The position numbers and the translations under genes were made by a program. The notes beneath the pieces were generated by a model. The model saw only the letters and a list, made by a program, of their open reading frames with translations, was not told the origin of the DNA and ran no database searches. DNA of 64,000 bases from an uncultured Hyphomicrobiales bacterium (lineage in GTDB: Bacteria; Bacteroidota; Ignavibacteria; Kapaibacteriales; UBA2268), in the NCBI GenBank assembly GCA_964464375.1, contig CAYXFU010000007.1, positions 43,721 through 107,720 of the forward strand, in the 5' to 3' direction. Below, in pieces: positions 23,683 to 25,140 of this stretch. How positions within the stretch are numbered: the stretch's first letter is position 1; the number at the start of each line of letters is the position of its first letter.

Positions 23683-25140
23683 TTATAAGTGATATTTTTT
23701 CAAAAAATCAGGATAGAAAGTAAAGCCAAATCTGGGCATTGAATAATAACTAGTCGATTCTATTGGAATCAATATTTTATCCCAATAGGTTTTACCGTTA
23801 ACTCTAGTTGGTGCCCAATTGATTCTCCATTCCAAATAAGGAGTGAATAAGCCAATATTTTTCACCGGTATATTGACCCTAAGACCTAGTCCAAAATTGA
23901 AGCCATTAGAATTCTGAATAATTTCTAGATCTTTTCTGCCCTGATTTATAGTATTAAAATACATTGAAAAACCTGCAGTTGCATAAAAGTTAATCTTTGC
24001 ATAAGGGTTAGCAGTCCATATAGAGGAAATTTCTATTATCTGATAGATATGTGGTCCTTCTTGGCTGATACCATTTGCATCTTTTGATTTTTCAAGAATT
24101 TTATTATTTTTTGCATGGGTATAAACAGCTTCAAACATCAAAAAATCAAACAGACTATAATTAATAGCTACACCATAGAAGAATATACCTTCGTAAGACA
24201 CCTCTTTTTCAACACTTGGAGTGACTGTATTGTTGTAAAGGAATTGAACAATTGTATGAGTCCCAATTACAGCACCCAAACCAAATGCTTTTTCGAATTG
24301 ATAAACTTTTGGTGGAATAGTATCGGAACTATTAGATTGAGAAAAAAGAGACAAAATAGGAATAATCAAAAGTAAAACAGTTAGTCTGAATAATCGTTTA
24401 GCATTAGCAGTTGTCATTTTTATAACCTCATCTATTTGTATTGATTTTATTTCCGAAATCTTTTGAGCAACATAGTTGACGTATGAAGGCTCGTTTCGTT
24501 TTCCACGAAGTGGCACTGGTGTCATATATGGAGAATCTGTTTCCAGCAATATCCTCTCCAGTGGTGTAATTTCAACGATTTCACTTAGGTTGCTTTTTTT
24601 GAATGTTATATTTCCTGTGAATGACACATGAAAATCTAAATCAATTGCTTCATTTAACATGTGTCTATCTCCGGAGAAGCAATGCAGAACCCCTTTCAAA
24701 TTTCCATCCTGCTCATTTTTCAAAATATCCAAAAGATCACTGTCTGAGTCGCGATTGTGAACTATGACAGGTTTATCTAGGATTTTGGCTAATCTCAGCT
24801 GATTTGTGAATGCCTCTTTTTGTATTTCTTTGGGTGCAAAGTCGTAATAATAGTCCAGACCAATTTCACCTATAGCAACAACTGTTGGATTCATGGCATT
24901 CTTTTCAATGATCTCAAGATTCTCATCTGTTACCTGCTGTGCATAATGTGGATGAATGCCCATTCCACAGAATATGTTTGGAAATCTATCAGTCAAAGCC
25001 AAAATATTTGCAAAATCTTTTGGTTCAATCCCGGGTATAATTATTGATTCAACCCCAGATTCAAATGCTCGGCCAATGACTTGATCACGATCTTCATCGA
25101 ATGCAGAGGTATCAATATGAGCATGAGTATCAATCATCAC
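23683..25140 (-). CDS. tatD: TatD DNase fused in frame to a signal-peptide-bearing OM beta-barrel domain
   Basis: DTHAH, AIGEIGLDY, HNRDS, LHCFSG, LLETDSPY over the first ~250 aa; then a hydrophobic stretch and amphipathic beta strands. Confidence 0.85.
   Translation of the reverse strand: MMIDTHAHIDTSAFDEDRDQVIGRAFESGVESIIIPGIEPKDFANILALTDRFPNIFCGMGIHPHYAQQVTDENLEIIEKNAMNPTVVAIGEIGLDYYYDFAPKEIQKEAFTNQLRLAKILDKPVIVHNRDSDSDLLDILKNEQDGNLKGVLHCFSGDRHMLNEAIDLDFHVSFTGNITFKKSNLSEIVEITPLERILLETDSPYMTPVPLRGKRNEPSYVNYVAQKISEIKSIQIDEVIKMTTANAKRLFRLTVLLLIIPILSLFSQSNSSDTIPPKVYQFEKAFGLGAVIGTHTIVQFLYNNTVTPSVEKEVSYEGIFFYGVAINYSLFDFLMFEAVYTHAKNNKILEKSKDANGISQEGPHIYQIIEISSIWTANPYAKINFYATAGFSMYFNTINQGRKDLEIIQNSNGFNFGLGLRVNIPVKNIGLFTPYLEWRINWAPTRVNGKTYWDKILIPIESTSYYSMPRFGFTFYPDFLKKYHL

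Follow-up and report, generated by a model that had tools for sequence, protein, structure and literature searches.

A TatD-family hydrolase and a predicted outer-membrane beta-barrel share one reading frame, joined by a candidate internal signal peptide, across a clade of Ignavibacteriae and Kapabacteria

What does a tatD gene encode when its reading frame runs on past the end of TatD? The question is raised by a locus on a 64,000-nucleotide stretch of contig CAYXFU010000007.1 (positions 43,721 to 107,720 of the forward strand; assembly GCA_964464375.1) from an uncultured lake bacterium that is named as a member of the Hyphomicrobiales and placed by GTDB in the Ignavibacteria (Kapaibacteriales, UBA2268). 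This whole stretch is referred to below as the window, and unless stated otherwise coordinates are positions within it. On its minus strand, an open reading frame (ORF) at 23683..25137, here called tatD::omp, encodes 484 amino acids from an ATG at 25137 and ends with a stop codon at 23683-23685. The explanation favoured here, and held with slightly more confidence than doubt, is that this one ORF yields two proteins, a TatD nuclease and an outer-membrane barrel, and that the Sec signal peptide between them takes its positively charged n-region from TatD's last helix. The parts themselves are ordinary, namely a TatD nuclease, a small outer-membrane barrel and a Q-rule signal peptide; their arrangement is not.

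The first 250 residues of the product (24388..25137, minus strand) constitute a TatD/YchF-family metal-dependent hydrolase domain with an intact set of metal ligands. PF01026 (TatD_DNase) matches residues 3-252 over model positions 1-253 with an E-value of 3e-88 and 295.8 bits (cutoff 27), TIGR00010 scores 280.1 bits (cutoff 206), and the closest solved TatDs are PDB entries 2gzx and 1j6o (E about 1e-62). H5, H7, E91, H127, H152 and D201 are invariant in a 39-sequence alignment and line up with the solved TatDs. The active-site set of the TatD TIM barrel (HxH, Glu, His, His, Asp) is thus recognizable in the sequence, and the domain is a predicted hydrolase. In the AlphaFold2 model of this domain, the predicted local distance difference test (pLDDT) score is 91-98, and the last helix spans residues 235-250. 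The models for the named Escherichia coli equivalogs NF007745, NF008075 and NF008522 gave 178.9, 195.4 and 152.6 bits, below their cutoffs of 395, 438 and 481. Because these scores fall under the TatD, YcfH and YjjV equivalog cutoffs, the domain is regarded as a member of the family and not as an orthologue of any of these E. coli paralogues. Unfused TatDs, whether solved or metagenomic, stop a few residues past an ...LF(x)L ending (...KLFNL in the solved proteins). The tatD::omp frame, as had been predicted from the run of the frame past KRLF, does not stop there and continues as RLTVLLLIIPILSLFSQSNSS... for 234 further residues.

The fusion could in principle be an artefact in which a lost stop codon, a frameshift or a misassembly merged two adjoining genes in a single genome. 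Two observations lend themselves to this idea. An ENA contig 85% identical to the window (L002) matches it across the junction and for some 70 codons into the tail before turning into unrelated, GC-richer sequence from about its position 1190; this chimeric assembly end explains the odd C-terminus of protein P0003. In addition, a distant, 40%-identical relative (L001) has a TAA between its two parts, but this codon lies within the signal peptide and not at the end of TatD. Against these stands the identity with the window over 23400-25700, with 0 differences and no indels, of DNA contigs assembled in two lake metagenomes and of a metatranscriptome contig of 3.3 kb. The 96%-identical JGI fragment and L002 itself both continue through the junction without a stop, and an 80%-identical metagenome-assembled genome (MAG) of the Ignavibacteria (L003) carries an intact 482-residue ORF in the neighbourhood dnaX-bcp-tatD::tail-(bamD)-exonuclease. 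The same junction recurs in JGI, ENA, NCBI and Logan assemblies, several independent samples supply identical DNA and RNA contigs, and there are at least 146 full-length fused homologues at 44-78% identity. Hence neither reads nor relatives have a stop after KRLF, and the probability left to an artefact is negligible; the independent contigs, the profile-search family and the junctions of the relatives rule this explanation out.

The architecture also extends well beyond one genome. A word-indexed homologue search with the tail alone returned 3 proteins, whereas an exhaustive profile search recovered 57 clusters (50% identity), in which the longer matches are mostly proteins of 465-543 amino acids that carry the tail at their C-terminal end. 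In a search for related loci, a 3-sequence tail alignment matched one genome locus. The best 120 full-length matches are all 465-512 amino acids long, with 98-100% coverage, except for the contig-truncated fragments P0001 and P0003, and the full-length matches are named only "TatD family hydrolase". They come from Ignavibacteriae, Candidatus Kapabacteria and MAGs of the Bacteroidota or the Fibrobacterota-Chlorobiota-Bacteroidota (FCB) group, some on contigs of 3.3-3.8 Mb. The original prediction had left it to the relatives to say whether the fusion is kept, and at least 146 full-length members keep it. When the TatD domains are analyzed phylogenetically, the 146 fused proteins and one fused metagenome locus (L008) form one clade, with 68 unfused TatDs outside it, which indicates a single origin of the fusion. 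Judged by these sequences, the architecture is a clade-wide trait that arose once and is not peculiar to the window genome. The earliest-branching fused groups are P0047/P0054/L008 and P0043/P0052/P0049/P0058.

The C-terminal part of the product is predicted to be an outer-membrane protein. Its mature form would be a 218-residue domain, Q267-L484 (23686..24339, minus strand), composed of a short linker and an 8-stranded beta-barrel that ends ...SMPRFGFTFYPDF followed by 6 residues (LKKYHL). An AlphaFold2 model built on a 30-sequence tail alignment has a pLDDT of 91.1 and a predicted template modelling (pTM) score of 0.83, and consists of an N-terminal helix, which is the hydrophobic segment, followed by 8 long antiparallel strands. 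When the tail model was compared with the PDB by Foldseek, nearly all of the top 50 matches were outer-membrane barrels and the best-ranked were small ones, headed by the OmpA transmembrane domain (OmpA-TM), NspA (TM-score 0.71), OmpW/OprG, Ail/OmpX and OprF-N, all with a probability of 1.00. The modelled strands and the Foldseek matches agree with the earlier proposal of an outer-membrane barrel, and the tail is best described as a predicted OmpA/OmpX/NspA-like 8-stranded barrel with a predicted outer-membrane location. The C-terminal consensus of the family is ...FYSIPRxGIxFYPxF, and many members end on an aromatic F or W. PF13505 is among the precomputed annotations of some relatives of tatD::omp. 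One stand-alone relative, P0033 (locus L006), scores 26.8 bits with this model, below the cutoff of 28.7. Its gene lies among glycosyltransferase genes with an upstream region of its own and no tatD nearby, and the protein carries its own N-terminal signal peptide ending ...SIAQ. A stand-alone member with its own signal peptide identifies the tail family as autonomous exported proteins. Further candidates for stand-alone genes, the MTT-starting protein P0006 and probably also P0034 and P0027, were discarded; the sequence of P0006 is truncated at a contig edge, up to which its TatD goes on in frame.

How does such a barrel come to stand behind a TatD domain? The segment that joins the two looks like a cleaved Sec signal peptide in an internal position. 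It extends from M241 to S266 (24340..24417, minus strand), with an h-region LTVLLLIIPILSLF at 24343-24384 and predicted cleavage at S266|Q267. Its n-region, MTTANAKRLFR (24385-24417, minus strand), is the last helix of TatD, so that these 11 codons are common to both predicted products. In 135 of the 146 fused members, an [ASGT]Q motif follows the ...LF at a median distance of 18 residues, as AQ in 88 and SQ in 41 (129 together). The residue statistics were taken over 138 fused members with an [AS]Q-type site. In these, position -1 is A or S, -3 is L, A, V, S, I, T or G, -2 is F or Y and +1 is Q; the 25 residues after the cleavage site contain 31% D/E; the n-region (M..LF plus 2) has a net charge of +2 or +3; and the longest uncharged run has a median length of 15. 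An uncharged run of about 15 residues fits a signal peptide and not a membrane anchor. For comparison, a Q-value of 77% is given for Ignavibacterium album in the paper on the Q-rule (PMC5837995), and 8 ordinary N-terminal signal peptides in the window end alike, such as ...FSFSLFSQDD and ...VKLFAQEND. In the AlphaFold2 model of the full-length protein, both domains are confident, residues 255-276 have a pLDDT below 50 and the pTM is 0.57; the low pLDDT of these residues implies that the hydrophobic segment packs on neither domain. Additionally, the linker between the cleavage site and the first strand is about 18 residues long in the window protein, a length with which an uncleaved protein could probably not reach across the periplasm to the outer membrane. 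Taken as a sequence-based prediction, the junction is a signal peptide with a signal peptidase I/Q-rule site. The proposal that the last helix of TatD is part of a signal peptide is borne out by the n-region, by an h-region about 15 residues long and by an [AS]|Q site that resembles those of the window's own signal peptides.

The same helix contains the second candidate start. Met241 is encoded by an in-frame ATG at 24415..24417 (minus strand), the candidate start of a 244-residue barrel precursor, MTTANAKRLFRLTVLLLIIPILSLFSQ..., and a GAGGT resembling a Shine-Dalgarno (SD) sequence lies at 24425..24429 (minus strand), where it is formed by the GAG of Glu237 and the GT of Val238. The spacer between them is 7 nucleotides (TATAAAA), and thus the originally predicted geometry of ATG, GAGGT and 244-residue product is exact. 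Methionine precedes the "TT" in 135 of 146 fused proteins and in only 2 of 69 unfused metagenomic TatDs (Fisher p = 3e-41). The unfused TatDs usually have I, V, L, Q or R at the position of Met241, and Met is present in 0 of 4 distinct solved TatDs that were aligned. In the tree, 130 of 136 crown fused tips have the internal Met, which is absent from 6 of the 7 tips of the earliest-branching groups (P0054, L008, P0043, P0052, P0049 and P0058). Junction DNA covers 12 fused loci, 8 of them Met-bearing and 4 Met-less. In all 8 Met-bearing loci, GAG GTN stands four codons upstream, so that GAGGT precedes the ATG by 7 nucleotides, while the motif is found in 0 of the 4 Met-less loci (p = 0.002 against 8/8), whose codons at the Met position are TTA, GAA, GCC and CAA. 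L008, the sole early-branching Met-less lineage with junction DNA, is one of those without GAGGT.

Codon usage does not readily account for this association. GAG makes up 7-36% of the Glu codons in the same genes and is the sole GAG among 15 in L007, and GAG in six lineages has a joint probability of about 1e-5. Unfused controls have GAGGT in 7 of 27 cases (p = 3e-4 against 8/8) and, where AT-rich, in 2 of 9 (p = 0.002). With GC content allowed for in this way, the frequency of GAGGT in unfused TatDs matches codon usage and is far under 8/8, and both unfused TatDs that do have the Met are without GAGGT. The internal ATG and GAGGT therefore appear to be specifically conserved, beyond the constraints of TatD itself. 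Thus the internal SD, which the original prediction had proposed to look for in relatives, is present in all of the Met-bearing loci at a level that neither unfused TatDs nor codon usage would provide.

Several points nevertheless weigh against the two-product reading. The claim that SD-like motifs precede several genes in the window is only weakly true, with 11 of 48 genes (23%) against a background of 8%, and SD use in this genome is accordingly weak. Met is a conservative replacement for the usual I, V or L at a buried helix position. The Met and GAGGT counts are not phylogenetically independent, since the crown could have inherited ATG and GAG from one ancestor; against this, synonymous sites would be expected to be saturated at 45-50% protein identity. 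The mRNA near the internal ATG is only slightly less structured than the average of the gene, and Met-less loci are alike in this respect. The TatD-domain tree is a neighbour-joining tree with midpoint rooting. The window tail has no Pfam or NCBIfam match, PF13505 giving none at E<=1, and in the window subclade the barrel runs 6 residues (LKKYHL) past its aromatic residue, modelled as a short helix in the window protein. The RNA data consist of assembled contigs without 5' ends or ribosome footprints, and both initiation at 24417 and cleavage are inferred. Finally, L001 fits neither route of synthesis, as it has an in-frame TAA at its positions 550-552 within the h-region (KFMNWFLILIFYF*FMIFSQAFSQ, the asterisk denoting the stop). 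TatD, the internal ATG and GAGGT are all kept at this locus, and a linker of 14 residues and a second Met precede the h-region; the TAA could reflect an error in the sequence of a single short contig, a pseudogene or something else. With regard to transcription, a sigma-70 scan for an internal promoter gave an uninformative 24 sites where about 19 were expected, in a lineage that may use other promoters. One RNA contig spans the whole operon and another ends, at low depth, about 124 nucleotides upstream of the internal ATG.

Based on this evidence, the two products would arise as follows. Ribosomes would also initiate at ATG 24417, in the window genome and in most of the clade, and produce a 244-residue pre-barrel that Sec would export, signal peptidase I would cut at S266|Q267 and BAM, the machinery for beta-barrel assembly, would insert into the outer membrane. 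Internal initiation followed by export, cleavage and insertion of the pre-barrel is considered likely. Ribosomes starting at ATG 25137 must read through and would make the 484-residue protein. Its internal signal sequence would insert with the N-terminus inside and the C-terminus outside, the barrel part would be translocated and cleaved off, and the spent signal peptide would keep TatD at the inner membrane. That the read-through protein is processed in this manner and leaves TatD at the inner membrane is an evenly balanced proposition. The fusion itself probably goes back to a single event, a deletion through which tatD became linked to the h-region of an omp gene lying downstream. At first, the full-length route would have had to work, and the ATG and the GAG would have come later and uncoupled barrel synthesis from that of TatD; the ATG is one change from the usual ATT, ATA or GTN, and the GAG is one change from GAA. 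The basal fused lineages without ATG and SD keep the signal peptide and the barrel, from which it follows that the full-length protein is probably an export precursor as well. Conservation of the fusion alone, however, is no proof that the 484-residue protein functions, because in an in-frame overlap no stop can return without truncating the barrel. A more elaborate version, advanced tentatively and with clearly less confidence than the two-product reading in general, is a two-compartment polyprotein in which the Sec signal peptide behind the folded enzyme would send all that follows it for export, signal peptidase I would cut at [AS]|Q and the signal peptide would be kept as a permanent C-terminal membrane anchor of TatD, with the internal SD and ATG later tuning the ratio of the products. 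If true, a nuclease at the inner membrane would be coupled 1:1 to a barrel in the outer membrane.

The strongest competitor dispenses with the internal start. A single 484-residue precursor would be made, signal peptidase I would free the barrel, and the ATG and GAGGT would be unused and conserved for other reasons or by descent. The basal and scattered fused lineages without the ATG, four of which have junction DNA and are also without GAGGT, retain an intact signal peptide, AQ site and barrel, as this explanation would have it; the weak SD usage of the window genome and an mRNA structure that does not mark the internal site point the same way. The fusion is also kept without a stop in more than 146 members, but the missing stop is uninformative, since any stop past the ATG truncates the barrel in either model. 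What makes a precursor without internal initiation unlikely, though still deserving of serious consideration, is that Met occurs in 92% of fused and 3% of unfused TatDs and that GAGGT accompanies the ATG in 8/8 loci, solely where the ATG is present and above both codon usage and the unfused controls. The same conservation can be turned the other way, to argue that internal initiation is the sole productive route and that the 484-residue protein is a tolerated or rapidly degraded by-product, or else a TatD with a useless appendage. The overlap, in which the 11 shared codons for MTTANAKRLFR serve both proteins, would lock such an arrangement in place. This extreme form is improbable, because in Met-less lineages purifying selection still appears to maintain an intact signal peptide and barrel and because an h-region exposed after a folded domain normally engages the signal recognition particle and Sec, as is generally known of signal anchors.

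The last explanation is that the hydrophobic segment is a permanent transmembrane anchor that is never cleaved and that the tail belongs to an inner-membrane nuclease as its beta-rich domain in the periplasm. Its charges, arranged according to the positive-inside rule, would suit an anchor with its N-terminus inside, and neither the lack of a Pfam match for the window tail nor the C-terminal extension past the aromatic residue in the window subclade would be surprising in such a protein. Nearly all of the significant fold matches, however, are outer-membrane barrels, and the 8 long amphipathic strands are predicted to form an OmpA/OmpX-like barrel. The median h-region of 15 residues is short for an anchor, A or S at -1 with Q at +1 in 135 of 146 members is a cleavage signature, and the stand-alone homologue has an ordinary N-terminal signal peptide. 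Consequently, an uncleaved anchor is very improbable, and the production of a TatD nuclease and a separate outer-membrane barrel from one frame continues to be preferred.

If the preferred reading is true, tatD::omp would be a natural and clade-wide case in which one frame gives two unrelated proteins for two compartments, and the 11 shared codons would fill three roles, those of enzyme helix, signal-peptide n-region and initiation site. Because these genes are all called "TatD family hydrolase", a whole family of outer-membrane proteins in Ignavibacteriota and Kapabacteria would escape gene lists and censuses of such proteins. For protein targeting, the locus would raise the question of whether Sec and signal peptidase I can act on a signal peptide that follows a large folded domain, and of whether a cleaved peptide can be reused as an anchor. 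For gene evolution, the in-frame overlap would act as a ratchet that no stop codon can reverse, and the order of events, with the fusion first and the internal start later, could be read from the neighbour-joining, midpoint-rooted tree.

The arrangement does not appear to have been described, in that full-text literature searches on TatD combined with Ignavibacteria, barrel, fusion or signal peptide found no account of it. The fused domain has the same full TIM barrel and metal ligands as the TatD/YcfH/YabD Mg-dependent 3'-5' exonucleases (2gzx, 6l25, 1j6o, 1yix and 4pe8). In contrast, the known TatDs are soluble proteins of about 255-265 amino acids with I, V or L before the "TT", while the fused TatDs have Met there and a last helix that runs into a signal peptide and an outer-membrane barrel. 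The tail resembles OmpA-TM, OmpX/Ail, NspA, OmpW/OprG and OprF-N (the PF13505 clan) in its predicted fold, in size and in its Sec/signal peptidase I type of site. As no family matches the window tail at the sequence level, it is treated as a family of its own, made up of the 57 clusters. It differs from other small outer-membrane barrels in that its precursor is almost always embedded behind a cytoplasmic enzyme and in the D/E-rich linker at the mature N-terminus of most members.

Known in-frame internal starts in bacteria, which Meydan et al. and others mapped genome-wide, lead to truncated versions of the same protein (bioRxiv 10.1101/520783; PMC11005335), often with the loss of a signal or domain. 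Like them, tatD::omp contains, within a longer ORF, an in-frame ATG and an SD-like motif that are conserved, and two products are predicted. Unlike them, the short product would be unrelated to the long one's enzyme, differently localised and have only 11 residues in common with the functional part of the long product, which would change from enzyme helix to signal-peptide n-region. Classical cases of internal starts are IF2 alpha/beta, ClpB and CheA L/S. Signal-anchor (type II) membrane proteins and internally processed precursors likewise have a hydrophobic segment behind a cytoplasmic domain and positive charges that face the cytoplasm, but the segment in tatD::omp has the length of a signal peptide and a conserved signal peptidase I/Q-rule site, and is followed by a barrel that must leave the inner membrane. 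To our knowledge, there is no described example of a bacterial signal peptidase I site after a folded 250-residue cytoplasmic enzyme, and none was found in the literature searched. Fusion of a globular domain to an outer-membrane barrel does occur in Cyc2, which has an N-terminal signal peptide (bioRxiv 10.1101/262287). Cyc2 and the autotransporters also hold a globular domain and an outer-membrane barrel in one polypeptide but are wholly exported, whereas in tatD::omp the predicted signal peptide stands between the domains and the N-terminal enzyme would stay in the cytoplasm.

A different TatD fusion was also encountered at two metagenome loci, L039 and L071. In these, TatD has an extension of about 200 amino acids with a radical-SAM-like CxxxCxxC motif (NITNRCTNSCSFCV and NVTNRCNANCVFCKR), and no hydrophobic segment lies between the two parts.

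The ORF listing for tatD::omp begins with a GTG at 25140, which would give 485 amino acids. The ATG at 25137 is the likelier start, because homologues begin MIDTHAH and because the stop codon of the upstream bcp gene overlaps it as TGATG (25135..25139, minus strand). This overlap of the bcp TGA with the tatD ATG is consistent with translational coupling in a dnaX-bcp-tatD::omp operon. The order dnaX-bcp-tatD::omp is also found in L003, L089, L091 and L092, and bcp-tatD::omp in L090. The retention of this gene order in fused relatives at about 45-50% protein identity suggests a long-lived operon. Upstream of tatD::omp, the operon region occupies 25137-27349, and bcp encodes an AhpC/TSA peroxiredoxin. 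On the other side, a gene for an outer-membrane assembly lipoprotein of the BamD/YfiO type (22634-23407, plus strand; lipobox LSGC) is convergent with the fusion and adjoins its barrel-encoding end. The adjacency is probably coincidental, because it is kept in the 80%-identical relative L003 and not in distant members. Further away, at 27457-30324 (plus strand), lies a gene for a 955-residue subtilase with a Por_Secre_tail sorting domain of the type IX secretion system. Together with the Q-rule signal peptides, this tailed subtilase fits an organism of the Ignavibacteria and the FCB group that has type IX secretion.

Two local rises in depth were noted near the fusion. Between the convergent 3' ends of bamD and tatD::omp, the intergenic segment 23477-23553 has a DNA depth of 58-109, compared with 7-10 in its flanks (8-10x), owing to many short contigs at 90-95% identity. 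It holds a terminator-like hairpin, TTCCTGCGAATGCAGGAA, with a T-run, and a second hairpin, ATTCC...GGAAT. The segment has no tRNA, no Rfam match and no further copy in the window, and it is perhaps an intergenic repeat of the dispersed kind or an element common to related genomes. A second peak, at 25471-25510 within bcp, reaches a depth of 13-42 compared with 5-10 and lies over the conserved active-site region of the peroxiredoxin; it most likely reflects cross-mapping of contigs from other organisms.

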